Assembly (NCBI GenBank): GCA_036510155.1
Contig: DATCEK010000161.1
Coordinates: forward strand, 5,347-69,346
DNA from: Solirubrobacteraceae bacterium
GTDB taxonomy: Bacteria; Actinomycetota; Thermoleophilia; Solirubrobacterales; Solirubrobacteraceae
Length of the DNA stretch: 64,000 nt
Reading direction: 5' to 3'
Position 1 is the stretch's first letter; every line of letters starts with the position of its first letter. Position numbers and translations under genes: made by a program. Under the pieces are notes generated by a model. It made no database searches and was not told the DNA's origin. It saw only the letters and a program-made list of their open reading frames with translations. Shown here piece by piece: positions 18,967 through 53,309 of the stretch.

Positions 18967-19881
18967 CTACTGCAAGAACTGCAGTAGGGATTCTTGGACG
19001 ATGCTGGCGCCCGCGCGAAGTGCGGCCTCATAAGCGGCCTGCTCGGTGGAATAGGCGATCGACGTCTGGGCGATGTTCGCGTCCTCGGTGTTGGACAGGC
19101 TCGCGGTGATCGAGCTCTGCAGCGATTCGATGCGGCTCGTGGCCGTCTGCAACTGGTCGGTCACGCTTCCCGCCGTGGCTTGCAGCTGACTGAGGGTGTC
19201 GATGCTCGTTTCCAGACTTTTCAGATCGGTCGAGCCGAGAGCGCTGACGTCTTCGGCGCTGCCGCCGCGTAGGTGTTCTGAGATCGTGCGCAGCGTGTCG
19301 AGCAGCTTGCCGTCAGCCGAGCCCTGCCCGTTACCGAGCAGCGAGGAGATGTCCGTGCTGACGTTGATCGACACGCCGGGCCCCACCGCGCGCGTGATGA
19401 TGCCGTTGTTGCCCTGGTAGGCGTCTTCGGCTCCCTGTGTATATGGGGCGGTCGTGGTCGCGGTTCCAGAGAACACGTACTGTCCGGCGTACTGCGTGTT
19501 TGCGTCTTGCTTGACGGCTTCGGTCAGCTGCTGCACCTCGGTGGCGATGCTTTCGCGGTCGCTCTGGTTGTTGGTGCCGGTCGAGCTCCGTACCAAGAGC
19601 TCGCGCACGGTCTGCAAAACGTTTGAAACGTTTGCCATCGCACCGCTGGCCGTGTTCTCCCAGGAGATCCCTTCCTGAGCGTTGGCCGCATAGGAGCTCA
19701 GCCCGTCGAGCTGGCTCTGCAGTTCGACTACCTGGCTTGCGCCGTAGGGATTGTCTGAGGGCTCGAGGATCGTCTTGCCTGAAGACAATTCGTTCGAGGT
19801 ACGCTCCAGGTTCGCCAGCGAGGAATTGATGTCGTTGAGCGTCGTGGAGCGGACCATCGCCGGCGTGATGCGTTCGGTCAT
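18967..19881 (-). CDS. flgL: Flagellar hook-associated protein 3
   Basis: ELSSGKTILEPSDNP, GQYVFSG, EDANIAQT; follows flgK. Confidence 0.93.
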   Translation of the reverse strand: MTERITPAMVRSTTLNDINSSLANLERTSNELSSGKTILEPSDNPYGASQVVELQSQLDGLSSYAANAQEGISWENTASGAMANVSNVLQTVRELLVRSSTGTNNQSDRESIATEVQQLTEAVKQDANTQYAGQYVFSGTATTTAPYTQGAEDAYQGNNGIITRAVGPGVSINVSTDISSLLGNGQGSADGKLLDTLRTISEHLRGGSAEDVSALGSTDLKSLETSIDTLSQLQATAGSVTDQLQTATSRIESLQSSITASLSNTEDANIAQTSIAYSTEQAAYEAALRAGASIVQESLLQFLQ

Positions 19882-19922
19882 GGTCGAGCCTCCGCGCGAG
19901 AGATGCTGGCGTCCACGGCCAT
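19878..19922 (-). CDS. Putative relay mini-ORF flgK to flgL (MAVDASISRAEARP, 14 aa)
   Basis: ATG 2 nt after the flgK stop; its TGA overlaps the flgL ATG (ATGA). Confidence 0.4.
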   Translation of the reverse strand: MAVDASISRAEARP

Positions 19923-19924
19923 CG

Positions 19925-21235
19925 CTAGAACCCCGTTCCGGTGTGCTCGATCAGCGTTTCGAGCATGCTGTCCATCGCGTTGAGCGTGCGCGCCGAGGCC
20001 TGGTAGCCGCGCTGGAAGCTGATCAGGTTGGTCATTTCTTCATCGAGCGACACGCCCGAGACGCTCTGGCGCTGGTTGCCGATCGCGGTCACCGTCGTCT
20101 GTAGGTTGGCCTGCTCGTCCTTGGCCGCCTGCACACCTGCGCCGACCTGCTCGACAAGCGCGGCATAGCCCTGTTCAGCGGCGCCACCGCGCAACGCCGC
20201 GATTGCCTGGGCGACGTCGTTGCCGCCCTTGGCTTCGGTCGAGGAGGTTTGCACCTGGGCAGCCGTGACCGCCACCTCGAGCGTGGCGGCAGTTGCGCCG
20301 GAGAAGAACGGCGTGCTCGTGTGCAGCGCGTTGACGGTGCCCGCAAGCGCAGCGGCCACGTTGTCCAACGCCGTCTGGTAGTTGCTCAGCGCTCCGGTTG
20401 GGGAGGTCAGGCCCAGCAGCGCGCCGAGCTTCCCACCGGCGGCCGGCGTGAGCGCCTGGGGCCAGTTGACCTTCGTGCCTTCGACCAGCGGCTTGGCCGC
20501 ATCGCCGAAGCTGACGGTGTCGGTGCCGTCGGCCTGCTGGCTGACGGTGACCTTGGCGAGACTCGAGAGCTTGTCGAGCAGGAGGTCGCGCCGGTCGAGC
20601 ATTTCGTTTGGCTTCTGGCCGGCTTCTTCGGCAAGCTTGATTTGGCCGTTGAGCTGAGCGATCTGGTTGGCGTCGTTTTGCACTTCGCCCGATGGTCCGG
20701 TAAGGGCCGTGTACTGCGCGCCGGCCTGGGTTGAGATCGTCGAGAGTTGTGCGCTCAGTTCGTGAAAGGTGTTCGCCAGCGATACGCCGGCGGCGACCAC
20801 TCCCTGCTTGGCCGCGAGGCTTGTCGGGGCGTTGGCGAGATCGCTCCAGGCGCTCCAGAAAGCCGAGATTCGACTGGCAAGGCCTGAGCTCGAGGGTTCG
20901 TTGAACGCCGCCTGGGCCTGGGTGAGCTCTTCAGACTGGGTACTTGCTTCGCTCAGCGAGCTTGTCTGCGTGCGGTACTGGGCGTCCAGGTAGATGTTGC
21001 GCACGCGCGTGATCGTCTCGGCGCTGACGCCGGTGCCGAGCTGTGCGCCGCGGCCGGTCAGCGGCGAGATCGCCGGGATGACGATCGGTTCCTTGGTCTC
21101 GAGGACCGCCCGCTGGCGCGAATAGCCTTCGGTGTCGGAGTTGGTGATGTTGTTGCCGGTAACGTCAAGCGCCGCCTGCTCGGCGACGAGTCCGCTAAGT
21201 GCGGTTTGCAGTCCTTGCAGGGTCGGGATCGACAT
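19925..21235 (-). CDS. flgK: Flagellar hook-associated protein 1
   Basis: LDVTGNNITNSDTEGYSRQR, GTGV, LLDRRD, SVSGVSLDEEMTNLISFQRGYQASAR. Confidence 0.96.
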   Translation of the reverse strand: MSIPTLQGLQTALSGLVAEQAALDVTGNNITNSDTEGYSRQRAVLETKEPIVIPAISPLTGRGAQLGTGVSAETITRVRNIYLDAQYRTQTSSLSEASTQSEELTQAQAAFNEPSSSGLASRISAFWSAWSDLANAPTSLAAKQGVVAAGVSLANTFHELSAQLSTISTQAGAQYTALTGPSGEVQNDANQIAQLNGQIKLAEEAGQKPNEMLDRRDLLLDKLSSLAKVTVSQQADGTDTVSFGDAAKPLVEGTKVNWPQALTPAAGGKLGALLGLTSPTGALSNYQTALDNVAAALAGTVNALHTSTPFFSGATAATLEVAVTAAQVQTSSTEAKGGNDVAQAIAALRGGAAEQGYAALVEQVGAGVQAAKDEQANLQTTVTAIGNQRQSVSGVSLDEEMTNLISFQRGYQASARTLNAMDSMLETLIEHTGTGF

Positions 21236-21239
21236 CGGC

Positions 21240-21791
21240 TCAGGCGTGCAGGTCGAGGACGTGCAGGTTGCCGTTAGGGCGAGCTCGCGTGATCGGCGTC
21301 GAGGAGCCGTGCGTGTCGTAGCCGGTAACTCCGTCGAGCGCGAGCACGCCCATCAGATGGTCGAGAAAACCCAGTTCGATTTGCATCAGGGCGCGGTTGC
21401 AGGAGTGCTCGCGCTGTAGCTCGCGCAACAGCCCGCGCAACTCGGCGCTCAGAGTTGCCGCGCGCTCGGCGACGGCGTCCTCCATCAACGTGCACAAGCG
21501 CTCGAGCGTGACAGCCTCGGCGGCGATCCCGAGCCGCTCGCCGCTGCGAGCGAGCAGACGCGAGCGCTCCTCCTCGAGCAACTGGCGGCGACTCATCTCC
21601 CCGCGCAGAATCCCGGCCAAGCGCACGACCGTGTCCACGTCCCGTGCCCGGATCGCCTTGCCTTGCGCGAGTACGACCTCGAGCAAGCTGCGGGCCGAGG
21701 CGATCTGCGCGTCCAGGTGTGCGAGCACTTCTACGCCGAGCGCCCGATCCTGGGCGAACCGGTCGGGCTGAGCCAGCGCGGCCAAGCTCAT
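21240..21791 (-). CDS. flgN: Flagellar export chaperone FlgN-like
   Basis: Helical protein before flgK: LLEEER..LL, LQREH..NRALM..ELGFLD. Confidence 0.8.
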   Translation of the reverse strand: MSLAALAQPDRFAQDRALGVEVLAHLDAQIASARSLLEVVLAQGKAIRARDVDTVVRLAGILRGEMSRRQLLEEERSRLLARSGERLGIAAEAVTLERLCTLMEDAVAERAATLSAELRGLLRELQREHSCNRALMQIELGFLDHLMGVLALDGVTGYDTHGSSTPITRARPNGNLHVLDLHA

Positions 21792-22336
21792 GCCGCAGTG
21801 CCCCCGGTGGCGGCGGGACCGTCTGCAGGCGTGGTGACAGACGGGTTTCCATTTTTGGGGATTGGCGTGCTCGCGCCTGTACTAGCGCTTGTACCACCTG
21901 TCGTTGGCGCAACTTTCCCGTCGCTCTGCGTGCCTGCTCCCGCCAGATGGCGGGTCATCTGAGCGGCCAGCCCGAGGCCGCCCGCGCTCATCACGCCGCT
22001 GGTCAGTGCTTGCGGCAACATCGAGGAAAGCGGACCACCTGCGCCACCGCTGCTTTCCCCGCCGACTACAGAGCCTTCTGAGGATTCGCCTTCCGCACCG
22101 CTTTCGCCGCCGAGGCCACTGCTGGCGGTCAGCGACTGCGAGAGCTCTTCGACCAGCATCTGTTCGAAGGCAAGCGCCGTCTCGTAGGCCTTTTGCGTGG
22201 CGGGGGAGCCTTTGCGCACCCAGGCGGGCTCGAGCGTCTGGTTGACGGCCGGCGCGCCGCTTGAGGACGTTGGCGAGCCGGCGGAGAGTGGCAAACCCAA
22301 CGACGCGGGCGAGCCCGAGGGCAGCGGGATGCTCAC
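21788..22336 (-). CDS. Rod-binding (FlgJ N-terminal-like) protein without muramidase domain
   Basis: GTG 22336 overlaps the flgG stop; ALAFEQMLVEEL and MLPQAL...GGLGLAAQM resemble FlgJ rod-cap motifs. Confidence 0.7.
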   Translation of the reverse strand: MSIPLPSGSPASLGLPLSAGSPTSSSGAPAVNQTLEPAWVRKGSPATQKAYETALAFEQMLVEELSQSLTASSGLGGESGAEGESSEGSVVGGESSGGAGGPLSSMLPQALTSGVMSAGGLGLAAQMTRHLAGAGTQSDGKVAPTTGGTSASTGASTPIPKNGNPSVTTPADGPAATGGTAA

Positions 22337-23073
22337 GCCGGGCGCAGCTGGTTGGCGATCGACATCATCTGACTCTCGGTCTGGATCGCCGAGCTGCTCA
22401 TCTGGTAGTCGCGTTGGGTGCTCACCATCAGCGCCATCTCCTTCGACATATCCACATTGGAGCCCTCCAACGCGCCTTGACGAATTTTCACCGCGCTCGC
22501 TCCCAGCGGCGTGATCGTGCCGCTGGCCGTCGTCGGCGTCAGCGTGCCGCCACCGCCTGCGAGCAGGTGGTCCGGTGAGGGGACATTGACGAGCTTGATC
22601 TGGCCGAGCGTCTTCTTGCCGGCGCTCACGCTGCCGTCGACACCAATTTTCACGTCGCCGGGTGAGACCCCTGGCGGCAGCTTGATCGGCGGTTCCAGCG
22701 GGTTGCCTTCCGCATCGACGATCGTGCCGGCGGCGTCTACGCCAAAGCTGCCGTCGCGTGTGAGCACCGGTCGGCCGCCGCTGCCCTTGACCTGGAAGTA
22801 GCCTTCGCCTTCGATCGCCAGGTCGAGCGGATTCCCAGTTTCCTGGATCGAGCCCTGAGCATGGCTGCGCCCGATCGTTTGCGCGCTTGCCCCTGCGCCG
22901 ATGCTCGATTCGGTGCCGGCCTCGTCCACAGCGTTGTAGAGCAGGTCGCTGAAGGCGACACGCTCGGATTGGTAGCCGCTTGTGGAGATGTTGGCGAGGT
23001 CGTTTGAGACCGCGTCGAGCTGTTCTTGCTGCGCGGCCATGCCCGCCGCCGCAGAGTAGAGGCCTTCGAGCAT
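22333..23073 (-). CDS. flgG: Flagellar distal rod protein FlgG
   Basis: SNDLANISTSGYQSERVAFSDLLY, TGNPLDLAIEGEGYFQV, TRDGSF, LEGSNVD..KEM. Confidence 0.9.
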   Translation of the reverse strand: MLEGLYSAAAGMAAQQEQLDAVSNDLANISTSGYQSERVAFSDLLYNAVDEAGTESSIGAGASAQTIGRSHAQGSIQETGNPLDLAIEGEGYFQVKGSGGRPVLTRDGSFGVDAAGTIVDAEGNPLEPPIKLPPGVSPGDVKIGVDGSVSAGKKTLGQIKLVNVPSPDHLLAGGGGTLTPTTASGTITPLGASAVKIRQGALEGSNVDMSKEMALMVSTQRDYQMSSSAIQTESQMMSIANQLRPA

Positions 23074-23099
23074 CAGTCGCCACCGTTCGCTTCAAGCAT
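23073..23099 (-). CDS. Putative relay mini-ORF flgF to flgG (MLEANGGD, 8 aa), arising from a duplicated TGATG junction
   Basis: ATG overlaps the flgF stop (TGATG) and its TGA overlaps the flgG ATG (TGATG); 20-bp imperfect direct repeat at 23069-23088 / 23095-23114. Confidence 0.55.
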   Translation of the reverse strand: MLEANGGD

Positions 23100-23794
23100 C
23101 AGCCGCCGCCATTCAACGAGCCGACTTGCGATGCAGACTCCTGCAGGGTCTGCCCGATCGACTGGATCGCCTGCTGGCCAGACTGGAAACTGCGCAGCGA
23201 AGTGATCATTTCGACCATGATCTTCGCTGCGTCTACGCCGGAACCCTCCAATGAGCCCTGGCGCACGGTGCCGGTTGGCTTGCCCGAGGGGCTGCCGGTA
23301 TAGAGGTTTTCTCCCTGCTTGACGGCTCCCGGCACTTCGAAGACACCGAGCGCACCCGGCGCGACTTTGCCGCCAGCGCCGACCCTGACCGGCGCTCCGC
23401 TCTGATCGAGCACAGGGTCGCCGCTCGCATCGGTCAGCACCCCTTCCGCGGAGCTAGTGAACTGCCCGTCGCGGGTGTAGCGCACGCCCTGAGCTGTCTT
23501 GACAGCAAAGAAGCCGCTGCCTGCGATCGCGAAGTCGAGCGGTTCGCCTGTTTCCTGTAGCGATCCTTGTGTCATGTCGGTGTAGGTCTTGCCGAGCGCC
23601 ACGCCGCCATCGACCGATCCGACCGCCGGGCCGCCCTCGCTGTTGGCGAGCAGCACGTCGCCAAAACTGTGCTGGGAGGACTCGTCGGGCTTGTAGCCGG
23701 GGGTCGAGGCGTTGGCCAGATCGTTTGAGAGCTGGTCCTGACGGACCTGCTCGGCGACCATCCCCGAAGCGGCGATATACAGGCCAAGATCCAT
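23099..23794 (-). CDS. flgF: Flagellar proximal rod protein FlgF
   Basis: MDLGLYIAASGM...SNDLANASTPGYK, TGEPLDFAI.G.GFF, RYTRDGQF, LEGSGVD. Confidence 0.88.
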   Translation of the reverse strand: MDLGLYIAASGMVAEQVRQDQLSNDLANASTPGYKPDESSQHSFGDVLLANSEGGPAVGSVDGGVALGKTYTDMTQGSLQETGEPLDFAIAGSGFFAVKTAQGVRYTRDGQFTSSAEGVLTDASGDPVLDQSGAPVRVGAGGKVAPGALGVFEVPGAVKQGENLYTGSPSGKPTGTVRQGSLEGSGVDAAKIMVEMITSLRSFQSGQQAIQSIGQTLQESASQVGSLNGGG

Positions 23795-23805
23795 GTCCCC
23801 CTGGG

Positions 23806-23832
23806 TGTTCGACCGCGAGCGGCGATTCTTTA
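23806..23832 (-). promoter_or_regulatory. Sigma-28-type promoter for the flgF-csrA operon (TAAA-N15-GTCGAACA)
   Basis: Matches the TAAA-N15-GCCGATAA consensus spacing. Confidence 0.65.
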
Positions 23833-23835
23833 GGT

Positions 23836-24648
23836 TCAGCCGACGGCGCTGAACAGCGACAGCTCGTCGGAGAGCTTGTCGTACAGGCGCCGGCGCAACT
23901 GGGTGTGGATCTGGGAGACCCTGCTCTCCGACACGCCCAGCCGGGCGCCGATATCGCGCAGCGTCCAGTGCTCCAGGTAGAGCAGCACGGCCACTTCGCG
24001 CTCGACCGGCGGCAACAGCGCGAACTCGGCACGAAAGCGCTCCTTGGCTTCGCGACGCTCCGCGCATACGATCGGGTCGCAATCCGTGTCGGGGCTCTCC
24101 AGCGTGTCGATCCGCTCGATCGTGGCGTTCTCATCGGAGCGCACCGTGCGGTTGAGCGAGCCGACCTCCGCCAGCGCCACCTCGTCGAGGCGACCCACGA
24201 GCTCTCGCGGATCCATGTCGAGCATCGCGGCAAGCTCCTCGCGGCTCGGTGCGCGGTCGTGGTTTGAGAGGAACAGCTCGCGAGCATGGTTGATCGCGCG
24301 CTCGTCGCGCCTGAGCGAGCGCGGCGCCCAGTCGTGGCGGCGCAGCTCGTCGAGCACGGCACCGTGGATGCGCGTCCATGCGTACTGCTCGAGCGTGGCG
24401 CCCTTCTCGGGGTCATAGCGCTCGATCGAGCGGATCAGCGCCTCGAGCCCGCAGGAGAGGAAGTCCTCGACGTCGCACTGGGCCGGTACCTCGCGCACCT
24501 TGCGGTAGACGATGTAGCGCACCATCGGCGTGAAGATGAAGATCAGCTGATCGCGCAGGCGCAGATCGCCGCTTTGGCGGTATTCGCGCCACGTCCTGAG
24601 GGCCTCCGCCGCGGAAATCCTCGAGGTCCCTTTTGCGATCGTTTCCAT
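23836..24648 (-). CDS. fliA: RNA polymerase sigma factor, FliA/WhiG (sigma-28) family
   Basis: LRDQLI, EDFLSCG...AIERYDP-like IERYDPEKG, RIHGAVLDELRRHDW.PRS, LRDIGARLGVSESRVSQIH; embedded in the flagellar cluster. Confidence 0.9.
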   Translation of the reverse strand: METIAKGTSRISAAEALRTWREYRQSGDLRLRDQLIFIFTPMVRYIVYRKVREVPAQCDVEDFLSCGLEALIRSIERYDPEKGATLEQYAWTRIHGAVLDELRRHDWAPRSLRRDERAINHARELFLSNHDRAPSREELAAMLDMDPRELVGRLDEVALAEVGSLNRTVRSDENATIERIDTLESPDTDCDPIVCAERREAKERFRAEFALLPPVEREVAVLLYLEHWTLRDIGARLGVSESRVSQIHTQLRRRLYDKLSDELSLFSAVG

Positions 24649-31563: not shown

Positions 31564-31566
31564 TCG

Positions 31567-31629: not shown

Positions 31630-31632
31630 CCC

Positions 31633-45070: not shown

Positions 45071-45077
45071 CCGGACT

Positions 45078-45104: not shown

Positions 45105-45130
45105 AGAGAGGACAACTCCGAGGAGCATGG

Positions 45131-45179
45131 GATGGGATGGCGCGCCTGCGCTGTTCCATCCCATCGCTAAAGCTTTAGC
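45131..45179. promoter_or_regulatory. 10-bp-stem hairpin (GATGGGATGG / CCATCCCATC) plus perfect 14-bp palindrome GCTAAAGCTTTAGC in the flbD leader
   Basis: Stem arms at 45131-45140 and 45156-45165; palindrome at 45166-45179. Confidence 0.6.
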
Positions 45180-45222
45180 CACACATCCAAAAATTCTAGG
45201 TTTTCGTGCAAGGGAGTTGGAG

Positions 45223-45513
45223 ATGATCACACTCAACAGGCTCGGACACAGCGACGAGCCCTTCCAACTCAATCCCGACATGGTCGTGACCGTCGAATCC
45301 ACTCCGGACACCGTCATCACGCTCGCGACGGGAGCGAAGGTTGTGGTGGCCGAGACGCCTGAGGAGGTCGCGGCCGCCCTGCACGCGTATCGCGCCAGCG
45401 TGCTCAGCGAGGCTCTGCGCAACCGTCGCCCACCGCGCCAGCCGGGCAGTTCTACCGGCACGCGCGAGCCCGGCCGACTCAGCGCAGTAGAAGAAGAGGA
45501 CAACCCGGCCTAA
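45223..45513 (+). CDS. flbD: FlbD family flagellar protein
   Basis: MITLNRL...FQLNPDMVVTVESTPDTVITLATGAKVVV.E. Confidence 0.92.
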   Translation: MITLNRLGHSDEPFQLNPDMVVTVESTPDTVITLATGAKVVVAETPEEVAAALHAYRASVLSEALRNRRPPRQPGSSTGTREPGRLSAVEEEDNPA

Positions 45514-45623
45514 CCGCTGCCGTCGACGCAGAGCGGCACAGACAGGAGTCGACGAACAGGACCAGTCCCTTCGAGGCTTTTCGAGCGCTCGCGGCGGCCC
45601 CAAGCAGGCCCATCGGCCAACTG

Positions 45624-45650
45624 TCAAGGATTTTTCCGCAGCGCCGATGA
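45624..45650 (+). promoter_or_regulatory. Sigma-28-type promoter for motAB-fliL-fliN-fliM (TCAA-N15-GCCGATGA)
   Basis: Consensus match 9 bp before the motA ATG. Confidence 0.78.
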
Positions 45651-45659
45651 GTTGAGCAA

Positions 45660-46466
45660 ATGAAAGCTTCAACGGCCATCGGGATTGGCGCGGCCTTCGG
45701 CGCGCTCCTGCTCAGCTCGATGATGGACGGGACCAGTCCCACCTCCTTCATCAACATTCCAGCGCTGATCATCATCATCGGCGGCACCTTCGGCGTGACG
45801 CTGGCCAGTACCGGCATAGACGTCATGAAGCGCGTGCCGAGCCTCTACAAACTCGTCATCTCGGCCGACCCCCCCGACGTGCGCGGGCGACTCGACCAGC
45901 TCGTGGGTCTGGCCGATCAAGCTCGCCGCGAGGGCCTACTGGCACTGGACGCACAACTTCCCGAGGTCGAGGACCCCTTCACCCGTAACGCGCTGCAGTT
46001 GGTCGTCGACGGCACCGACCCGGAGATGGTGCACACGATCCTCGAGGCCGAGGTCGACGGCATGGCCGCGCGCCACGCTGTCGGCGCCTCACCGTTCGAG
46101 AAGGCCGGCGGCTTCGCGCCCACGATGGGGATCATCGGCACCGTTCTAGGCCTGGTGCACGTGCTCCAGAACCTGGCGGCGCCCTCGACGCTGGGGCCGT
46201 CGATCTCCGCGGCTTTCATCGCAACGCTGATGGGCGTCGGCTCGGCCAACGTCATCTTCCTGCCGATCGCCAACCGCCTGAAGGCGATCTCCGCCGAAGA
46301 GGTCGAGCTGCGCATGATGACCGTCGAGGGGATCCTCTCGATCCAGGCCGGCGACAACCCGCGTCTGGTCTCTGAGAAGCTGATGTCCTACGTGCCGCCG
46401 GGGGAGCGCTCCGAGGAGGACGAACAGTCCGTCGCGCCGCTGGGCATTGAATCCAAGGCGGCCTGA
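45660..46466 (+). CDS. motA: Flagellar stator protein MotA
   Basis: ARREGLLALD, FAPTMGIIGTVLGL, AFIATL.GV, EGILSIQAG.NP. Confidence 0.96.
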   Translation: MKASTAIGIGAAFGALLLSSMMDGTSPTSFINIPALIIIIGGTFGVTLASTGIDVMKRVPSLYKLVISADPPDVRGRLDQLVGLADQARREGLLALDAQLPEVEDPFTRNALQLVVDGTDPEMVHTILEAEVDGMAARHAVGASPFEKAGGFAPTMGIIGTVLGLVHVLQNLAAPSTLGPSISAAFIATLMGVGSANVIFLPIANRLKAISAEEVELRMMTVEGILSIQAGDNPRLVSEKLMSYVPPGERSEEDEQSVAPLGIESKAA

Positions 46467-46468
46467 GC

Positions 46469-47347
46469 ATGGCTCGCAGGCGCGGGCGCCACCGCGGCGG
46501 AGCCCATGGCGAGGAGAGCGAGGAGCGCTGGCTTCTGACCTATGCCGACATGATCACGCTGCTGATGGCCCTGTTCATGGTCCTGTTCTCGATCTCCTCG
46601 GTCAACATCTCCAAGTATCAGACGCTGCAGCAGTCGCTGAAGGCGGCCTTCTCGGGCAACATCCTGCCCGGCGGCAAGGCGATTGCCCAACAGGGCTCGA
46701 CCGCCAACGCCAGCCACGTCCCGGCCACATTCGAATTGCAGGCTGTCGAGCCGGTCGTGAGCGAAGGCTCGAGCAGCTTGCAGAACAGCACCGCTCACGG
46801 TCCACAGAGCGCCTCCGCGGTTGCCCACCAGCAAACACCCTCCCAACGCGAGAGCAGCGAGTTCGCGCAGATCAAGCACGAGCTCGACGCTTTCGCGAAG
46901 TCGCACGGCTTCAGCCGGAGCGTGCAGACCTCGATCGAACAGCGCGGCCTGGTCATCAAGGTGCTGACCGACGACCTCCTATTTCCCTCGGGGCAAGCGA
47001 CGCTCGACGCTCGATCCTATGCGCTCCTCGGAGAGATCGGACAGCTTCTGAACATCGACGAAACCCACCCGATCAGCGTCGAAGGCAACACCGACAATAT
47101 CCCGATCCACAGCTCGCAATTCTCGAGCAACTGGCAACTCTCTACCGCACGCGCGAGCGCCGTCGTCGAATTCCTGGCCGAACACGGGGTCGCCCCGCAC
47201 CGACTGACAGCGAGCGGCAACGCAGACCAGCAGCCGGTCGCCGCCAACGCCACCGAAGCCGGCCGTGCGCGCAACCGGCGTGTGGAGATCGTGATGCGCC
47301 GCATCTACGGGGGAGAAGGCGAAAGCCACTCCGGCAACGAACCATAG
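46469..47347 (+). CDS. motB: Flagellar stator protein MotB
   Basis: ERWLLTYADMITLLMALF.VLFSIS; OmpA-like VEGNTD, NWQLS.ARA, RARNRRVEI. Confidence 0.96.
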   Translation: MARRRGRHRGGAHGEESEERWLLTYADMITLLMALFMVLFSISSVNISKYQTLQQSLKAAFSGNILPGGKAIAQQGSTANASHVPATFELQAVEPVVSEGSSSLQNSTAHGPQSASAVAHQQTPSQRESSEFAQIKHELDAFAKSHGFSRSVQTSIEQRGLVIKVLTDDLLFPSGQATLDARSYALLGEIGQLLNIDETHPISVEGNTDNIPIHSSQFSSNWQLSTARASAVVEFLAEHGVAPHRLTASGNADQQPVAANATEAGRARNRRVEIVMRRIYGGEGESHSGNEP

Positions 47348-47358
47348 GAACAACGACC

Positions 47359-47796
47359 ATGCTCAAAAACAAGAAGATCCTGCTCGTAGCGATCGTGCCG
47401 ATCCTGCTATTCGGTGGCTACACGATGACTAAGGCAAAGCCTGTGGTCAAGGAGAAGGTCAAGGGCACGATCTACGTGATGCCGCAATCGTTCCTGCTGA
47501 ACCTCAGCGACGGCCGCTACGCCAAGATCAGCGTGGCCCTGCAGCTGGCTCCCGGTCAGAGCGATGGCGCCAGCGCGGACGGAACCTCCTCCGGTTCCGA
47601 AAGTGGTCCCGGTACTCTGCCCGAGGAAGCGATCGTGCGTGAAATCATCACCAACTCTGTGACCGGCCAAAGCGGCGAAACGCTCATAAGCAGCCGTGGC
47701 CGAGAGGCGATCAAGCGCCTGATCCTGCACACGATTCAGCAAAAGACGGACGTCAAGGTAGAAGAAGTGCTTTTTCCGGATTTCACAGTTCAATAG
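47359..47796 (+). CDS. fliL: Flagellar basal-body protein FliL
   Basis: N-terminal transmembrane segment; FLLNLSDGRYAK, VEEVLFPDFTVQ. Confidence 0.9.
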   Translation: MLKNKKILLVAIVPILLFGGYTMTKAKPVVKEKVKGTIYVMPQSFLLNLSDGRYAKISVALQLAPGQSDGASADGTSSGSESGPGTLPEEAIVREIITNSVTGQSGETLISSRGREAIKRLILHTIQQKTDVKVEEVLFPDFTVQ

Positions 47797-47804
47797 GAGG
47801 CAAA

Positions 47805-48173
47805 GTGGCTGAGGCAATCGAGTACGAGCAGTTCGACCAGAATCCAACCTCAGATGGAGTCTCGGCCCCCGACCCCGACCTGAGCCGCCTCAGCGACATA
47901 CCGATGGAGTTGAGCGTGGAGATCGGGCGCACGCACATGACCGTCGGCGAGACGCTCGATTTGCGTGTCGGCTCCGTCGTTGCGCTCGAGCGCCAAGCCG
48001 GCGAGGCTGCCGACCTACTGGTCAACGGCACGGCGATCGCGCGGGGCGAGGTGATCGTCATGGACGAGCGCTACGGTCTGCGCGTCACCGAGATTCTCGA
48101 GAGCAACCAGATTTCAGCATCGACGGGAACCGGCGAGCCCACGGCGAACGAGACCCTGGCCGCCAACAGCTGA
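47805..48173 (+). CDS. fliN: Flagellar motor switch protein FliN
   Basis: LSDIPMELSVEIGRT...L..GSVVALE..AGE..DLLVNG..IARGEVIV...YGLRVTEI. Confidence 0.93.
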   Translation: MAEAIEYEQFDQNPTSDGVSAPDPDLSRLSDIPMELSVEIGRTHMTVGETLDLRVGSVVALERQAGEAADLLVNGTAIARGEVIVMDERYGLRVTEILESNQISASTGTGEPTANETLAANS

Positions 48174-48209
48174 CCTAGTCAACCCCGCGGCCACCAACAA
48201 CTGACCTAG
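48158..48209. repeat. 21-bp imperfect direct repeat (19/21) duplicating the fliN stop region
   Basis: GGCCGCCAACAGCTGACCTAG at 48158-48178 and GGCCACCAACAACTGACCTAG at 48189-48209. Confidence 0.8.
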
Positions 48210-48226
48210 AACGCAGAGGAGCACAG

Positions 48227-49522
48227 TTGAGCCCGAAGAGCCGCGCCGGCGCTTCAAAGGACGAGCCACAAAGCGCCAAGAAGCGCGCGAAGAAGCCTGC
48301 GTCAGCCGCCACAGATGAGCAGGACGGCCCCGCGGACGAGCGCATCCGCACGCTCGACTTCTCCCAGCCGACCAAGTTCACGACCGAGATCAGACGCCGC
48401 ATCTCTGGCGCGATCGAGCAGTTCTGCGAAGCGCTCTCGGGCCGCTTGACAAACGAGCTGGCCGTGGAAGTCGAGTTCAGCGTCGCCGAAGTCGACCAGC
48501 ACACCTGGGCCGCCGCCAAGGCAAGGTTGGCCGCCGACGCCGTCGCGGTCGCGATCGACGCCAAGGCGATCGAGCGCCAGATGCTGCTCAGTGTCGAGCA
48601 GCCACTGCTGCTGCAAGCGCTTGAATGTCTGCTCGGCGGCCAGGCGTCGCAAGCGCCGTCGGAGCGCCATCTGACCGATATCGACTGGGTGCTCGCACGA
48701 GGGTTCCTCGACGGTATCGTCGCTGAGCTGTCAAGCGCTTGGAACGAGCTAGGCGGCCCCCAGTTGACGCGCGGTGAGGTCGATTTGGAGGCCGACGCGG
48801 GCGTCTTCGCGCCGGTCGGCGAGCCCACTTTCGCGGTCACGCTTTCGAGCAGGATCGATGGCAGGACTGGCACCATGTCCCTGCTGATCCCCTGGTCGGC
48901 GGTCGAGCCGGTCGCCGAGAGCATCCGCGGCGGCGGCGGGCCGCCGCTCGCGGGAGACGTGCGCGATCCTGATGCGCTGCGGCGTGGCCTGGGCCGCGCC
49001 CAGGTACTGCTACGCGCCGAGGTCGGCTCGGCACAAATGCCGATCGAGCAGATGCTGGGGCTCGTGCCGGGCGCGCTTGCCGAGCTTCAAGGTCGCGCCG
49101 AGGACGGCGTGTGGCTGTTCGCCGAGGGCGTGCTGATCGGACGCGGACAACCAGGACGCTCCGGCACGCGCCGGGCCATCAAGCTGCACTCGACAAGCCA
49201 AACGCCAACCCGCGCCGACACCTATGCCAAGCTGGGCCGGGCCGAGCTCGAGCGTGCGCGAGCGCATGTGGACGGTAGGAGTGAGAGCCCCGAGGGCCGA
49301 GCGATCTTGCGCAGCATCTTCGTGCGCGTGTGGGCCGAGCTCGGACGAACACACCTTTCGCTGAAGGACGCCGTCGAACTGGCGCCAGGCGCCCTCGTGG
49401 AGCTCGATCAGGCGGCGGACACGCCGGTCGAGCTGTTCGTAAACGGACTGTGCTTTGCCAACGGCACGCTCGTGGTCACGCCAGACGGCGGCTGGGGCGT
49501 GCAGGTCTCTGAGCTGGTCTAG
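48227..49522 (+). CDS. fliM: FliM with two C-terminal SpoA domains (FliM-FliN-like fusion), lacking the N-terminal CheY-binding motif
   Basis: IRTLDFSQPTKF, LTDIDW..A, LLIPW; SpoA1 LRAEVG..., SpoA2 VWAELGRT.LSL...L.PG.LVELDQ....VELFVNG. Confidence 0.85.
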   Translation: MSPKSRAGASKDEPQSAKKRAKKPASAATDEQDGPADERIRTLDFSQPTKFTTEIRRRISGAIEQFCEALSGRLTNELAVEVEFSVAEVDQHTWAAAKARLAADAVAVAIDAKAIERQMLLSVEQPLLLQALECLLGGQASQAPSERHLTDIDWVLARGFLDGIVAELSSAWNELGGPQLTRGEVDLEADAGVFAPVGEPTFAVTLSSRIDGRTGTMSLLIPWSAVEPVAESIRGGGGPPLAGDVRDPDALRRGLGRAQVLLRAEVGSAQMPIEQMLGLVPGALAELQGRAEDGVWLFAEGVLIGRGQPGRSGTRRAIKLHSTSQTPTRADTYAKLGRAELERARAHVDGRSESPEGRAILRSIFVRVWAELGRTHLSLKDAVELAPGALVELDQAADTPVELFVNGLCFANGTLVVTPDGGWGVQVSELV

Positions 49523-49523
49523 C

Positions 49524-49550
49524 TCAAGACCTGCCTCCTCGGGCCGATAA
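49524..49550 (+). promoter_or_regulatory. Sigma-28-type promoter for fliOPQR-flhBAF (TCAA-N15-GCCGATAA)
   Basis: Perfect -10 box and correct spacing. Confidence 0.85.
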
Positions 49551-49583
49551 CCGGGGGCGACTCTTCCTCGGAGTCGTCCCTCG

Positions 49584-50291
49584 ATGACCAAGTTGACCCT
49601 TCCCCGTGCGGCCACGCAAGTGGCCGCCTTGCTGTGTTGCAGCCTGCTTGTGTGGGCCAGTTCCGCGTCGGCGTTCACTGCGGCAAACACCAAGAAGGGC
49701 AGCGGCGAACAGACGCCGCTGAACCTCGGCTCCCCCAGCACCGGCACGCATACGAGCTCGGGGGGGGCCAGCATCGTGCGCACGATCGTCGGCCTGGCGA
49801 TCGTGCTTGGCGTGATCTGGGGACTGGCGTGGGTCTTGCGCCAGGTCAAGGCAAAACGCGATCCACAGGTGGCCGCGACCGGCCTGACGAGCGTTGCCGC
49901 GCTTTCACTCAGCTCCGGGCGCTCTGTGCACCTGGTCAGGGCCGGCAAGGACTACCTGTTGCTCGGGAGCGCCGAGCACGGCTTGATGCCAATCCATCGC
50001 TACACCGAGCAGCAGGCGCTCGAAGCGGGCTTGCTCTCGCCCGATGAGCCCCTGCAACCCCGCAAACGCCGCATAAACCTCGGCCTACTCGCGCCGCCGG
50101 CGCGCGAAGACGACCACATGGTGCGACCGGTGAGCGCGCCGAGGGCGGCACTGCCACCTGGTAATCCACCAAGCAGACCCCGCCCAACGAGGACGCTCGA
50201 CTCCGGCGAGCGCCAGAGCGACCCGATGCACATGCCCACCGTGTCCTCCAGCCTGATCGAGCGTCTGCGCGAACTGACGGTGCGTCGTTGA
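49584..50291 (+). CDS. fliO: Flagellar biosynthetic protein FliO with extensions
   Basis: IVRTIVGLAIVLGVIWGLAWVL, LSLSSGRSVHLVRAG..YLLLG; precedes fliP. Confidence 0.85.
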   Translation: MTKLTLPRAATQVAALLCCSLLVWASSASAFTAANTKKGSGEQTPLNLGSPSTGTHTSSGGASIVRTIVGLAIVLGVIWGLAWVLRQVKAKRDPQVAATGLTSVAALSLSSGRSVHLVRAGKDYLLLGSAEHGLMPIHRYTEQQALEAGLLSPDEPLQPRKRRINLGLLAPPAREDDHMVRPVSAPRAALPPGNPPSRPRPTRTLDSGERQSDPMHMPTVSSSLIERLRELTVRR

Positions 50292-50926
50292 ACCTCACCT
50301 CGGGCAACTCCGTCCAAATCCTGCTGCTCGTCGCCGGCCTGACGTTGGTGCCGGCGATCCTCTTTACCGTCACAGGGTTCAGCCGCATCATCATCGTGCT
50401 CGGCTTCATCCGCTCCGCGATCGGCACGACCACCGAGCCGCCCAACCAGGTGCTCGTCGGGATCGCACTGTTCCTGACGATCTTCGTGATGGCGCCAACC
50501 GTCGCAGCGATCAAGAAGGACGCGGTTCAGCCGCTGATGGCCCACCAGATCACGACGATCACCGCACTAGAGCGCGCCGAGGAACCGATGCGCGAATTCA
50601 TGTTCCGCCAGACACGCCCACAGGACATCGCGCTGTTCGTAACCCTCGCCAAAGCAAAGACGCCGCACACGCGAGCCGAAGTGCCGACCGAGGTGCTGAT
50701 CCCGGCCTTCATCGTCTCCGAGCTCAACATCGCCTTTCAAATCGGCTTCTTGATCTTCCTGCCGTTCCTGATCATCGACCTGATCGTCTCGGCGACGCTC
50801 ATGAGCATGGGGATGATCATGCTGCCGCCGACCTTCATCTCCCTGCCTTTCAAGATCCTCCTGTTCGTGCTCGTGGACGGCTGGGATCTGGTCATCAGAG
50901 CACTCGTCCAAAGCTTTCACACCTAA
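50288..50926 (+). CDS. fliP: Flagellar export gate protein FliP
   Basis: FSRIIIVLGFIRSAIGT...PPNQVLVGIALFLT.FVM.P, LIPAFIVSEL..AFQIGF, SLPFKILLFVLVDGW. Confidence 0.97.
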   Translation: MNLTSGNSVQILLLVAGLTLVPAILFTVTGFSRIIIVLGFIRSAIGTTTEPPNQVLVGIALFLTIFVMAPTVAAIKKDAVQPLMAHQITTITALERAEEPMREFMFRQTRPQDIALFVTLAKAKTPHTRAEVPTEVLIPAFIVSELNIAFQIGFLIFLPFLIIDLIVSATLMSMGMIMLPPTFISLPFKILLFVLVDGWDLVIRALVQSFHT

Positions 50927-50936
50927 GGATCCGCCA

Positions 50937-51074
50937 ATGCCCAAAAAGACACCTCCCAAAAAAGCACCCCATTATCTGAACAGGCCAAACCAGAACATCC
51001 CCAGCCCAACGATGCTCCCCAGCCCAACGATGCTCCCCACCCCAACGATGCTCCCCACCCCAACGATGCCATGA
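50937..51074 (+). CDS. Putative relay mini-ORF fliP to fliQ (45 aa; MPKKTPPKKAPHYLNRPNQNIPSPTMLPSPTMLPTPTMLPTPTMP)
   Basis: SD AAGGA, ATG 10 nt after the fliP stop; TGA overlaps the fliQ ATG (ATGA); fliQ has no SD of its own. Confidence 0.5.
   Translation: MPKKTPPKKAPHYLNRPNQNIPSPTMLPSPTMLPTPTMLPTPTMP
50999..51070. repeat. 4 x 18-bp tandem repeat CCCCA(G/C)CCCAACGATGC(T/C) abutting the fliQ start
   Basis: Units begin at 50999, 51017, 51035 and 51053. Confidence 0.95.
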
Positions 51075-51340
51075 ACCAGGACACCGTCGTCAACCTCGCC
51101 TCCCAAGCCATGAGCCTCGCGCTGAAGATCGCCGGCCCCCTGCTGATCGTCGCGCTCGTCGCCGGGCTTGCGGTCAGCATCTTCCAAGCGGTCACACAGA
51201 TCCAGGAGCAAAGCCTCACGTTGATCCCGAAGATCATCGGTGTGGCCGCCGTGATGATCGTGCTCGGGCCATGGATGCTGGGCCAGCTGGTCGCCTACAC
51301 GACGGCCCTGTTCACCTCGATCCCGTCAATGGTGGGCTAG
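51071..51340 (+). CDS. fliQ: Flagellar export gate protein FliQ
   Basis: PLLIVALVAGLAVSIFQAVTQIQEQSLTLIPK..GPWML. Confidence 0.97.
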   Translation: MNQDTVVNLASQAMSLALKIAGPLLIVALVAGLAVSIFQAVTQIQEQSLTLIPKIIGVAAVMIVLGPWMLGQLVAYTTALFTSIPSMVG

Positions 51341-52119
51341 TGAACGAACTACTCAGAAAACTGGCCGCCGGCGAGCTGGTCGGCTTCATGCTCGTACTTG
51401 CGCGCGTCACGCCCCTGTTCATGATCGCGCCGCTGTTCTCCTCCTCGCTGGTCCCACCCCGGGTACGCGGCATCATCGCGGTGGGCATATCGGTCGGGCT
51501 GACACCGATTGCACTGCACGGCCAGCACATACCTAGCCAGCCGCTGGTTGTCGTAGAGCTCGTGATCGAGGGGCTGCTGGTCGGCTTCGGCTTTGCCTTC
51601 ACGCTTGCGATCCTGCTGGCGGCGGTAGAAACCGCCGGCGCGATGATCGACGTTGTCTCAGGCTTCTCATATGGAGAATTGATCAACCCGATGACCGGCC
51701 AGAACGGCGCGGTCATCTCGCGCTTCTACTCGTTGGTGGGGACGATGGTCTTCCTGGTCATCGGCGGCGAAGCGTGGACGTTGCGCGGGCTCGGGCGAAC
51801 CTTCCAGCTCGTCCCGCTGACGAGCGGCCCGCGCATGTCCTCGCTGATCGGCGGCGCCGAGCAGGCCTTCGCAGGCCTCTTCACCTCGGCACTTGAGATC
51901 GCCGGACCCGTGCTGGTCGCGTTGCTGATAACCGACGTGGCTTTCGGCGTCGTCTCGCGCGTCGTGCCGCAGTTGAACGTCTTCGCCGTCGGCTTCCCGG
52001 TAAAGGTGGCCGTCTCTTTGCTGGTCGTCGCGGCGGCACTGCCATTTACGGCCAACTGGATCTCAAACCAGATGTCGGTGAGCGTGAGCGCGGCGCTCGG
52101 CGCGCTGCACGTGGCCTAA
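51340..52119 (+). CDS. fliR: Flagellar export gate protein FliR
   Basis: LARV.PLFMIAPLFSS, AGAMIDVVSGF, PQLNVFAVGFPVK; GTG at 51340. Confidence 0.95.
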   Translation: MNELLRKLAAGELVGFMLVLARVTPLFMIAPLFSSSLVPPRVRGIIAVGISVGLTPIALHGQHIPSQPLVVVELVIEGLLVGFGFAFTLAILLAAVETAGAMIDVVSGFSYGELINPMTGQNGAVISRFYSLVGTMVFLVIGGEAWTLRGLGRTFQLVPLTSGPRMSSLIGGAEQAFAGLFTSALEIAGPVLVALLITDVAFGVVSRVVPQLNVFAVGFPVKVAVSLLVVAAALPFTANWISNQMSVSVSAALGALHVA

Positions 52120-52122
52120 AGC

Positions 52123-53193
52123 ATGGCTCGCGACGAACGCACCGAGAAGGCCACACCCAAGCATCGCCAGCGCGCGCGCGAGAAGGGACAGGTGGCGCGC
52201 AGCCCCGACCTCAGCGGCTCGCTCGTGCTGATCGCCGGCCTGCTCGCGATCAGTCTGATGGGCCCCAAGATCGTCGAAGCGGGGGCCACGACCTTTCGCG
52301 AAATGCTGCGCGAGGTCGCCAACCCTGCCCGTGCCACCGGTGCCGCGGGCCTGAGCGAACTGATGCACACCGCGCTCTCGACGATCGCGCTCGCAGTCGC
52401 CCCGGTAGCGGGCGCGTGCTTCCTCGCCGGCCTGCTTGGCGGCGTCGCACAGGTCGGCTTCAAGCCCACCGCGCACGCGCTGAAACTCGACTTTCGCCGC
52501 ATCAGCCCAGCCGCGGGAGCCCGCAACCTCTTCGGCCCAAACGCGATCTTCGAAGCCCTCAAGGCGATCGCCAAGGTCGCCGTCGTTGGACTGGTCGCCG
52601 GGCTGGCCGTGCTACCGGGCCTGACCACGCTCGCCTCAAAGGTCGGCATGCAGCCGACTGCGGTTGGCGCCCTCATGGGCGCTAGCGCCTTGGCAGTGGC
52701 CCAGCGTGCCGCGACGGCCTACCTCGTGATCGGCTTGCTCGACTACGGCTGGCGACGCTATCGCCACGAGAAGCAGCTGAGGATGACCAAGGAGGAGGTC
52801 AAGGAGGAGACACGCCAGTACGGCATCTCGGCAGAGGTCAAAACGGCTCAACGACGCCGCCAGATGCAGGCCGCGCGCGCGCGCATGATGGCCGCCGTAC
52901 CCAAAGCCGACGTGGTCGTGACCAACCCGACCCACTACGCCGTCGCACTGGTCTACGACGGCGCCTATACAGCGCCACTAGTGGTAGCCAAGGGCAAGGA
53001 CCTGATCGCGGCCCAGATCAGACGTGTCGCCGAGGAAAACGACGTGCCCGTGATCGGCGATCCACCGCTTGCCAGGGCGCTTCACTCCTCAACCGAGATC
53101 GGCCAGATGATTCCCCAAGAACTCTATGCCGCGGTAGCGCAGGTGCTCGCCTTCGTCTACCGCATGGCCGGGCGCAGGAAGCTGGCCTCGTGA
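52123..53193 (+). CDS. flhB: Flagellar export protein FlhB
   Basis: RTEKATPK, GQVARSPDL, VVTNPTHYAVAL (NPTH cleavage site), PPLARAL. Confidence 0.97.
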   Translation: MARDERTEKATPKHRQRAREKGQVARSPDLSGSLVLIAGLLAISLMGPKIVEAGATTFREMLREVANPARATGAAGLSELMHTALSTIALAVAPVAGACFLAGLLGGVAQVGFKPTAHALKLDFRRISPAAGARNLFGPNAIFEALKAIAKVAVVGLVAGLAVLPGLTTLASKVGMQPTAVGALMGASALAVAQRAATAYLVIGLLDYGWRRYRHEKQLRMTKEEVKEETRQYGISAEVKTAQRRRQMQAARARMMAAVPKADVVVTNPTHYAVALVYDGAYTAPLVVAKGKDLIAAQIRRVAEENDVPVIGDPPLARALHSSTEIGQMIPQELYAAVAQVLAFVYRMAGRRKLAS

Positions 53194-53309
53194 GCACCCG
53201 CGACATCGGGCCACACCGGCGCGGGCAACATCGCCTTGGGCTGCATCGCGAACAGACCATCCCTGCCAACGATGGCGTGCGCACTGGCGCCGGGAGGTTC
53301 CGCCCGTGA
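53190..53309 (+). CDS. Putative relay mini-ORF flhB to flhA (39 aa)
   Basis: GTG overlaps the flhB stop (GTGA); TGA overlaps the flhA GTG (GTGA); open for 40 codons. Confidence 0.5.
   Translation: MSTRDIGPHRRGQHRLGLHREQTIPANDGVRTGAGRFRP

Follow-up and report, generated by a model that had tools for sequence, protein, structure and literature searches.

Flagellar operons and intergenic mini-ORFs

The 64,000-nucleotide (nt) stretch of DNA analysed here, from a Solirubrobacteraceae genome (contig DATCEK010000161.1; hereafter the window), carries a complete flagellar gene cluster, identified with Pfam, in which six gaps between neighbouring genes are filled by short unannotated open reading frames (mini-ORFs; Table 1). 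The guanine-cytosine (GC) content of the window is about 66%. Its homologues with 70-91% identity carry the names Solirubrobacteraceae or Solirubrobacterales, and peat metagenome runs contain its sequence. Gene starts were set with Pfam and homology-anchored start positions.

A preliminary description had proposed that these mini-ORFs pass ribosomes from one gene to the next, and their coordinates, strands and start and stop geometry are all as it reported. On the upstream side, the mini-ORF start overlaps the preceding stop as GTGA (flhB), ATGA (fliK) or TGATG (flgF), or lies just beyond it, with an ATG 2 nt past the TAG of flgK and a GTG 3 nt past the TGA of fliE. The exception is fliP, where the ATG lies 10 nt past the TAA and the mini-ORF has its own Shine-Dalgarno (SD) sequence, a leading AAGGA (50925-50929) that overlaps this TAA. 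On the downstream side, five mini-ORFs end in an ATGA, GTGA or TGATG overlap, including the TGA that overlaps the flgL ATG, and the sixth ends with a TAG 3 nt ahead of the fliF GTG. Stops and starts that share a 4-nt or 1-nt overlap or lie a few nt apart are the arrangement of termination-reinitiation coupled gene pairs. As described, three mini-ORFs (flgF-flgG, fliK-flgD and flhB-flhA) overlap both neighbours.

Table 1. Coordinates of the mini-ORFs, flagellar genes and other features of the window.
Feature	Position	Strand	Remarks
flgK-flgL mini-ORF	19878-19922	-	14 codons, MAVDASISRAEARP; TAGcgATG ... ATGA
flgF-flgG mini-ORF	23073-23099	-	8 codons, MLEANGGD; TGATG at both ends
fliE-fliF mini-ORF	31567-31629	+	20 codons, in frame with fliF
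fliK-flgD mini-ORF	43012-43116	+	34 codons; ATGA over fliK stop, GTGA over flgD start
fliP-fliQ mini-ORF	50937-51074	+	45 codons; ends ATGA on fliQ start
flhB-flhA mini-ORF	53190-53309	+	39 codons; GTGA at both ends
flgF-flgG tandem duplication	23064-23114	-	26 nt, two copies
fliP-fliQ repeats	50998-51069	+	18 nt x 4, in frame
fliP-fliQ repeats	50940-50968	+	15 nt x 1.9, in frame
fliN-fliM spacer	48158-48212	+	31-nt tandem duplication
Minus-strand flagellar operon	17989-24648	-	Pfam; start-codon choice
sigma	24648-23836	-	Pfam
flgF	23794-23099	-	Pfam
flgG	23073-22333	-	Pfam
Rod-binding protein	22336-21788	-	Pfam
flgN	21791-21240	-	Pfam
flgK	21235-19925	-	Pfam
flgL	19881-18967	-	Pfam
fliW	18945-18493	-	Pfam
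fliW-csrA gap	18316-18492	-	177 nt
csrA	18315-17989	-	Pfam
Flagellar operon flgB to fliI	30300-36483	+	Pfam
flgB		+	Pfam
flgC	30653	+	Pfam
fliE	31099-31563	+	Pfam
fliF	31633-33180	+	Pfam
fliG, fliH, fliI		+	Pfam
FN3-repeat protein gene	36608-39940	-	1110 amino acids
Flagellar operon SLT to flhF	40206-56748	+	Pfam
SLT		+	Pfam
fliK	40913-43015	+	Pfam
flgD	43113-43568	+	Pfam
Flagellar_put		+	Pfam
Flagellar_put-flgE spacer	44105-44170	+	conserved element
flgE, flbD, motA, motB		+	Pfam
fliL	47359-47796	+	145 amino acids; Pfam PF03748, E = 6e-12
fliN, fliM, fliO		+	Pfam
fliP	50288-50926	+	Pfam
fliQ	51071-51340	+	Pfam
fliR	51340-52119	+	Pfam
flhB	52123-53193	+	Pfam
flhA	53306-55363	+	Pfam
flhF		+	Pfam
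Small ORFs 3' of flhF	57088-57633; 57634-57852		no Pfam match
Flagellin gene	58034-58888	+	Flagellin_N and Flagellin_C

The number of candidate gaps had been underestimated. Rather than nine, there are 14 same-strand flagellar gaps of at least 20 nt once starts are anchored by homology, and six of these, not most, are bridged. The other eight contain neither a bridge nor a chain of ORFs: sigma-flgF (41 nt), flgL-fliW (21 nt), fliW-csrA (177 nt), Flagellar_put-flgE (66 nt), flgE-flbD (152 nt), flbD-motA (146 nt), fliM-fliO (61 nt) and fliN-fliM (53 nt), the last already reported as lacking one.

Chance level of the bridges

Stop codons are rare at the GC content of the window, and we compared the bridges with shuffled gaps in which dinucleotide composition was preserved in the interior and the boundaries were held fixed. 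The outcome depends on the definition of a bridge. With the loosest tolerance, six bridges stand against 1.86 expected (P = 0.0006), while strict double overlaps are not significantly enriched (three against 1.54, P = 0.09). The tolerance for a stop and start to count as beside each other was generous, and the window alone is only suggestive because this tolerance was fitted to the data afterwards. Taken gap by gap, the probability of a bridge in shuffled sequence is 0.77 for flhB-flhA, 0.60 for fliK-flgD, 0.29 for flgF-flgG, 0.07 for flgK-flgL, 0.045 for fliP-fliQ and 0.004 for fliE-fliF. With fixed boundaries, each of the three double-overlap bridges is what chance would produce (P 0.2-0.77).

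These values bear on the simplest alternative, that the mini-ORFs are neutral relics in which an inherited start and an NTGA overlap enclose DNA of 60-70% GC with few stops, without selection or function. It draws support from the shuffle probabilities of the two long double-overlap bridges (0.60-0.77; 0.29 for the 8-codon flgF-flgG bridge) and from the insignificant excess of strict bridges. It also fits the Flagellar_put-flgE junction in related genomes, where nine bridges were found and 8.0 were expected.

Across both operon regions, predicted sigma-70 promoters and intrinsic terminators were no more numerous than in shuffled sequence, with none inside the six gaps; these scans bear neither for nor against the absence of an internal promoter. 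A search against Rfam returned zero matches across the whole window at the gathering threshold.

The bridged junctions are tight in relatives

For comparison, we collected 171 related loci, mostly from Solirubrobacterales: flhB loci on contigs representing one genome per species (80), metagenomic flgG loci (80), and loci of close FlhB homologues (11). Window proteins were mapped onto these by tblastn and upstream genes were extended to their stop. At five of the six bridged junctions, some relatives or more have a tight arrangement (GTGA, TGATG or a distance of 2-3 nt), in agreement with the proposal that the spacers are expansions. Relatives that co-occur in the peat samples of the window carry compact fliP-fliQ and flhB-flhA junctions. 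At flgK-flgL, fliE-fliF, fliP-fliQ and flhB-flhA, the mini-ORF start codon coincides exactly with the downstream gene start of compact relatives and represents a relic of this old start.

The flgK-flgL junction is tight in 20 of 22 loci, mostly as 'TAGCGATGA' with a 2-nt gap, and the mini-ORF ATG therefore corresponds to the ancestral flgL start position. Here, the closest relative (L081) has the same 43-nt gap, bridged from a GTG that overlaps the stop. Likewise, 'TGATCG[A/G]TGCC' with a 3-nt gap separates fliE and fliF in nine of 12 loci, so the mini-ORF GTG represents a relic fliF start. A single 9-nt indel distinguishes the homologous fliE-fliF spacers of L081 and L083, which retain the GTG as well as the TAG.

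Compact relatives have either TGATGA or 'TAGGAG-N7-11-ATG' between fliP and fliQ, the ribosome-binding site (RBS) in the latter serving fliQ directly. Among expanded fliP-fliQ spacers in Solirubrobacterales, 12 of 13 (window included) hold an ORF of 4-84 codons behind this ancestral 'TAGGAG-N7-11-ATG' RBS. Between flhB and flhA, a direct GTGA overlap is found in 14 of 26 loci, including the closest relative L001. All 12 expanded loci are bridged, one of them (L167) via a chain of two 59-nt GTGA...GTGA units, and the gap length modulo 3 is 1 in 11 of the 12. The spacers of L161 and L163 are homologous to that of the window, one 33-nt indel apart. In the window, the relic RBS AGGAAG (53176-53181) lies within flhB and a new GGGAGG (53292-53297) precedes flhA. 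Phase, and not openness (shuffle P = 0.77), is the informative part of this bridge.

In most relatives, fliK and flgD are separated by a spacer of 20-29 nt with a conserved GAAAGGA SD, which is the ancestral state, and the window keeps GGAAGGA at 43097-43103. A homologous bridged spacer in L001 measures 61 nt, 36 nt less than that of the window. At flgF-flgG, relatives have a TGATG overlap, gaps of 5-19 nt or, in most cases, a 113-173 nt insert, and none of their 44 gaps of at least 20 nt is bridged; the sole bridged case is the window. Here, the mini-ORF lies inside a 26-nt two-copy tandem duplication of the junction, with copies CTGATGCTTGAAG and CTGATGCTCGAAG (permutation P < 0.003; Tandem Repeats Finder period 26, 2.0 copies, 84% matches). 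Because the spacer duplicates the junction, its peptide MLEANGGD echoes the start of FlgG, MLEGLY.

The 113-173 nt flgF-flgG insert is itself conserved (L083, L087, L088, L090, L092-L095, L097-L101, L103-L105 and others). It opens with a sigma-28/WhiG-like motif, CTCAAGTCC-N13-16-GCCGATCAC, followed by conserved GGCTGGACCGCCATGCGGAAAGCCCGGCTCG...CACAGGACGGGCTG-ATG. In appearance the insert resembles a flagellar promoter internal to the operon, with a leader, and none of these inserts is bridged. The sigma-28-like motif does not occur in the gaps of the window, including 23074-23098.

Bridging and phase across independent expansions

We generalised the bridge test to 28 junction types (Table 2). 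After grouping spacers into events by sequence clustering, 40 of 43 independent expansions of ancestrally tight junctions were bridged, excluding the window. The expected number is 16.4 when lengths are kept and 9.5 when the phase is randomised (P < 5e-6). At junctions wide in every relative, three of 59 events were bridged, in line with the 2.4 expected by chance. The fliQ-fliR, fliR-flhB, flgB-flgC, flgC-fliE and motA-motB junctions are tight in the window and had not been selected in the preliminary description, and therefore provide unbiased replication.

Table 2. Bridged gaps by junction type. For junctions wide in all relatives the total is gaps of at least 20 nt; for ancestrally tight junctions it is expanded cases.
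Junction	State	Bridged/total	Remarks
sigma-flgF	wide	0/23	
flgF-flgG	wide	1/45	
flgL-fliW	wide	0/14	
fliW-csrA	wide	0/15	
flgE-flbD	wide	1/17	
flbD-motA	wide	0/11	
fliM-fliO	wide	0/21	
fliD-fliS	wide	3/17	1.1 expected
flhB-flhA	tight	11/12	twelfth is the L167 chain
fliQ-fliR	tight	9/10	
fliR-flhB	tight	6/6	0.2 expected
fliP-fliQ	tight	15/24	12/13 within Solirubrobacterales
fliE-fliF	tight	3/3	
flgK-flgL	tight	2/2	
flgB-flgC	tight	1/1	
flgC-fliE	tight	1/1	
motA-motB	tight	1/1	

Gap length follows the same division. At the NTGA-type junctions flhB-flhA and fliQ-fliR, lengths with a remainder of 1, 0 and 2 on division by three number 19, 3 and 0, while eight wide junction types are uniform (54, 52 and 57). 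Homologous spacers differ in length by 33 nt (flhB-flhA), 9 nt (fliE-fliF) and 36 nt (fliK-flgD). Phase-locking together with in-frame indels is the signature predicted for a constraint on translation rather than on the peptide. Neutral relics and chance leave unexplained the phase of 19 of 22 NTGA-type gaps, the indels of 9, 33 and 36 nt, the 40 bridged events where at most 16.4 were expected, and the ATG and SD retained in 12 of 13 otherwise unrelated fliP-fliQ spacers. At the level of the clade this explanation is already disfavoured, and we consider it unlikely.

The encoded peptides are unconserved, as had been suggested: they range from 4 to 107 codons, are of low complexity and have no sequence in common between lineages. 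This length range, the absence of shared sequence, the low-complexity or tandem-repeat composition and the lack of such ORFs in compact relatives all argue against functional micro-proteins of the flagellar export apparatus. Such a role would agree with the 78-amino-acid ORF that a gene caller annotated between fliP and fliQ in L168; it is nevertheless very improbable.

Origin of the spacers

Fifteen of 51 expanded spacers match the end of a flanking gene at P <= 0.05, where about five would be expected from 102 tests. Within the window, junction duplication was detected at flgF-flgG, at fliE-fliF and at the unbridged fliN-fliM. The fliE-fliF spacer is colinear with the 5' end of fliF (P = 0.015-0.02), and the corresponding spacer peptide of L083, VPLPQRALQRTTRGSQA, resembles FliF VPLSQLASRLTTRGW. 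The fliN-fliM spacer is a tandem duplication of the fliN 3' end including the stop, with copies of CTGACCTAG at 48170 and 48201 and GGCCGCCAACAGCTGA matching GGCCACCAACAACTGA (P = 0.007); junction duplication is therefore a general way for spacers to grow. In relatives, flhB-flhA spacers end in copies of the flhB 3' end, including its embedded SD, and begin with copies of the flhA 5' end. For example, the spacer end GGGAGGCTCGCTTCatgaac of L165 copies the flhB end AGGAGGCTCGCGTCGTGAAC, and the spacer of L002 contains the relic VNSTSVKH from the flhA 5' end. A resemblance of the flhB-flhA spacer of the window to flanking gene ends, noted by eye, failed permutation.

Some spacers in relatives are long and repetitive. 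A 316-nt flhB-flhA spacer (L164, 4406-4721) consists of in-frame tandem repeats with an open 107-codon ORF. In L168, a 247-nt fliP-fliQ spacer (2526-2772) is made of in-frame tandem repeats, in which a public gene caller annotated the 78-amino-acid protein, and a 172-nt fliQ-fliR spacer (3046-3217) is built of 30-nt repeats.

Insertions at start codons that bring their own coupling ORF are known as mycobacterial interspersed repetitive units (MIRUs; Supply et al. 1997, cited in PMC12548453), and mobile or repeat elements of this kind might have produced the spacers. Tandem units do occur: the window has units of 18 nt (x 4) and 15 nt (x 1.9), L167 has two of 59 nt, and L164 and L168 contain repeats. 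No strain copy-number variants of the window spacers were seen. The spacers are inserts at operon start codons whose ORF overlaps the flanking genes, as in MIRUs, but a dispersed repeat family with a consensus was not found in the window and the related loci. None of the six spacers has a second copy there: blastn-short searches against the window and 160 loci returned only self-matches and, from L001, one homologous spacer. Different genomes have unrelated spacers at a given junction, and the 15 that copy adjacent gene ends indicate a local origin. We regard an origin from such elements as quite improbable.

Shine-Dalgarno signals at relic and displaced starts

The relic start retains its RBS. 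That of flhA lies within the last flhB codons (AGGAGGCTCGCCTCGTGA), and that of fliQ is the TAGGAG overlapping the fliP stop. The fliP-fliQ mini-ORF has an SD of -6.5 kcal/mol, equal to that of the fliQ RBS in compact relatives (-4.9 in the window). The displaced fliQ start has no SD: its median of -2.1 kcal/mol is at background level (-2.8), and the value in the window is +0.3. The fliQ start is SD-poor in seven of 12 bridged fliP-fliQ cases. A start without SD is also found at fliF, in the compact and expanded state alike; in the window, the mini-ORF and fliF starts are at about -3.7 kcal/mol. As fliQ and fliF lack their own SD, a relay is plausible at both in the window. The combination typical of ribosome-delivering upstream ORFs (uORFs), namely an own RBS, an unconserved peptide and a stop over an SD-poor start, was found at fliP-fliQ only.

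Ribosomes in the spacers might instead shield the operon mRNA from Rho-dependent termination or decay without being handed over. Work in Mycobacterium tuberculosis ties coupling by 1- and 4-nt overlaps to suppression of Rho termination (bioRxiv 10.1101/2022.06.01.494293), and the ORFs fill bridged gaps, the longest of which measures 316 nt, to 90-100%. For such cover a stop need not coincide with the next start, and still almost every stop does. Moreover, gaps of 146-177 nt in the same operons are uncovered in every relative, and a fliQ without any SD points to delivery. Anti-polarity cover is thus also an unlikely explanation in our view.

Expansion of tight junctions and proposed selection on frame

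We think it probable, with considerable room for doubt, that the mini-ORFs are left over from the expansion of junctions, are still translated and have been filtered by selection on frame. In the ancestor, gene pairs would have had overlapping or abutting stops and starts (GTGA, TGATG or 2-3 nt), and the downstream start would have received ribosomes coming off the upstream gene or relied on an RBS within the final codons of that gene. The real gene would then be displaced downstream, through tandem duplication of the junction or through other DNA inserted right after the old start codon. The old RBS and start codon would remain in place beside the upstream stop, where ribosomes would keep starting and would translate the spacer. 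The surviving expansions and indels would be only those whose relic frame ends on or beside the new start. The terminating stop would be the duplicated copy of the upstream stop in duplication cases, where the bridge would close only with a duplication length of the correct phase, and otherwise the TGA of the NTGA start. A ribosome terminating at the new start could reinitiate at it; either of the other two phases would add a meaningless extension to the N-terminus or carry the ribosome past the start in the wrong frame. The data show the ORFs themselves, the tight ancestral junctions, duplication in some of the spacers, the bias in phase and the distribution of SDs; translation of the mini-ORFs, reinitiation, and selection acting through expression are what we infer from these patterns.

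Among the downstream genes, fliQ and fliF probably depend on the relay; for flhA and flgL it is probably just tolerated or harmless. Rather than a dedicated system, the bridges would be a by-product of how the gaps arose, with relic start and RBS staying put and junctions being duplicated, followed by selection on frame. The accompanying suggestion that they preserve the stoichiometry of flagellar subunits is not supported. The idea that expansion was limited to spacers able to pass on the ribosome gains comparative support at the export-gate junctions; it is not supported for fliK-flgD, which is at chance level, or for flgF-flgG, a one-off.

Several points weigh against expansion under frame selection. 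The flhB-flhA, fliK-flgD and Flagellar_put-flgE bridges arise in 60-77% of shuffles given their boundaries and length, and open frames are cheap in GC-rich DNA. With a shuffle probability of 0.60, the fliK-flgD bridge is therefore expected by chance given its boundaries; it is likely incidental and maybe a by-product. The flgF-flgG bridge is a one-off recent duplication and is likely incidental as well. Because flhA (-11.5 kcal/mol), flgL (-9.5, GGAGG at 19889-19893) and flgD (-7.9) have strong SDs of their own, a relay would be dispensable there. DNA similarity to flanking gene ends is non-significant for the flhB-flhA, fliP-fliQ, flgK-flgL and fliK-flgD spacers of the window. The fliW-csrA gap, with a length of 177 nt where the median of relatives is 24 nt, is unbridged, and one relative (L017) has two unbridged expansions. 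The events counted above come from a crude clustering of spacers on contigs from metagenome-assembled genomes and metagenomes, downstream starts were assigned by homology, as the start codon aligned with residue 1 of the window protein, and the survey covers flagellar operons only. A metatranscriptome search for the window found a single dataset, which shared 5% of words and came from a different organism, and contigs aligned with the window were uninformative about expression.

As an evolutionary rule, we put forward only tentatively that in Solirubrobacterales, and possibly in high-GC Actinomycetota at large, duplication, insertion or the growth of variable-number tandem repeats can widen a tight junction only where the relic frame ends up at the new start. 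Relays in one or several steps, as long as about 100 codons, would result, required for the SD-less fliQ and fliF, and gap length modulo 3 might serve as a read-out of coupling.

Other features of the window

Within the fliW-csrA gap, the csrA frame stays open upstream to an in-frame GTG at 18420 and a TTG at 18366; the gap may be an in-frame expansion or may encode an N-terminally extended CsrA. The Flagellar_put-flgE spacer contains a conserved element, (G)GCTGGACCTC-N4-6-GAGG(A/G)GGCC, followed by GCGAAAGGAAGGG and an ATGATG start. This element is also present in L001-L017 and in Lachnospiraceae loci (for example L020, L030, L041 and L058). Its core, CCGGACCT...GGAGGC, is recognisable upstream of flgE even in Firmicutes and has no Rfam match. 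The element looks hairpin-like, and spacer length at this junction is biased to a remainder of 1 on division by three (13, 4 and 2 for remainders 1, 0 and 2).

The third flagellar gene run, on the plus strand, opens with fliJ, continues through SLT and fliK to flhF, and is preceded by a 3.3-kilobase (kb) opposite-strand gene that splits the cluster between fliI and fliJ. This gene encodes a secreted-looking protein with repeated FN3/purple-acid-phosphatase-N-like domains. An apparent 457-nt gap between motB and fliN was discarded, as the region holds fliL, which is easily overlooked within a longer ORF in an alternative frame. Downstream of flhF are two small ORFs and then a flagellin gene.

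Relation to known systems and significance

Short ORFs can deliver ribosomes to another start, as the tap leader peptide of plasmid R1 repA exemplifies. The polycistronic RNA of cauliflower mosaic virus is translated as a relay race along abutting ORFs, small ones included, and needs a viral transactivator; this is a eukaryotic virus, without homology to the operons studied here and with another mechanism. In bacteria, the idea of uORFs that merely deliver ribosomes is accepted (PMC12548453), and NUGA-overlapping uORFs ahead of SD-less genes are common in M. tuberculosis (bioRxiv 10.1101/2022.06.01.494293). Termination-reinitiation coupling was abolished experimentally by an untranslated gap of about 20 nt (PMC10666635), and a bridge across such a gap would therefore matter.

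MIRUs come close to the mini-ORFs. According to PMC12548453, they are short inserts at start codons in operons, whose ORF is coupled at -4 nt (NTGA; Supply et al. 1997) and whose peptide is irrelevant, and their variable tandem copy number recalls the two-unit chain of L167 and the in-frame repeats of the window, L164 and L168. They differ in being a dispersed, recognisable repeat family thought to be mobile, whereas the spacers here are unique and lineage-specific, several being local duplications; the clade is also Thermoleophilia, not Mycobacterium. Directly coupled gene pairs (Huber et al. 2019, PMC6728339; 2023, PMC10666635) have the same ATGA and TGATG overlaps, encode subunits of heteromeric machines and correspond to the ancestral state of the junctions. 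Those cases couple two real genes, whereas here an intermediate ORF would restore contact over 25-316 nt. The mycobacterial NUGA uORFs (Shell 2015, via PMC12548453; bioRxiv 10.1101/2022.06.01.494293) share an unconserved short ORF with its stop over an SD-less start, which acts by being translated and not through its peptide; fliP-fliQ is the best fit. Ribosome-delivering uORFs lie in 5' leaders and usually are regulatory entry points, whereas the mini-ORFs lie between cistrons and would be coupled upstream too, giving a two-step hand-over.

Since MIRUs and ribosome-delivering uORFs are already known, the mechanism is not new. What appears to be new is the recurrent, lineage-specific origin by junction duplication, the two-step hand-over between cistrons and the clade-wide phase-locking in uncultured Thermoleophilia. 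Overlaps of 4 nt or 1 nt are the usual sign from which coupling is deduced, and it is believed to be lost at a separation of about 20 nt. Flagellar operons offer dozens of natural experiments in which a phase-locked frame, in-frame indels and a retained old RBS mark the survivors. If the mini-ORFs are translated, "intergenic" spacers within operons can be obligatorily translated, and annotation pipelines that ignore such ORFs would overlook how initiation at fliQ and similar genes really takes place. The length of a spacer modulo 3 would then be a sequence-only coupling test for uncultured organisms, and MIRU-like behaviour could arise from ordinary local duplication, with no mobile element.

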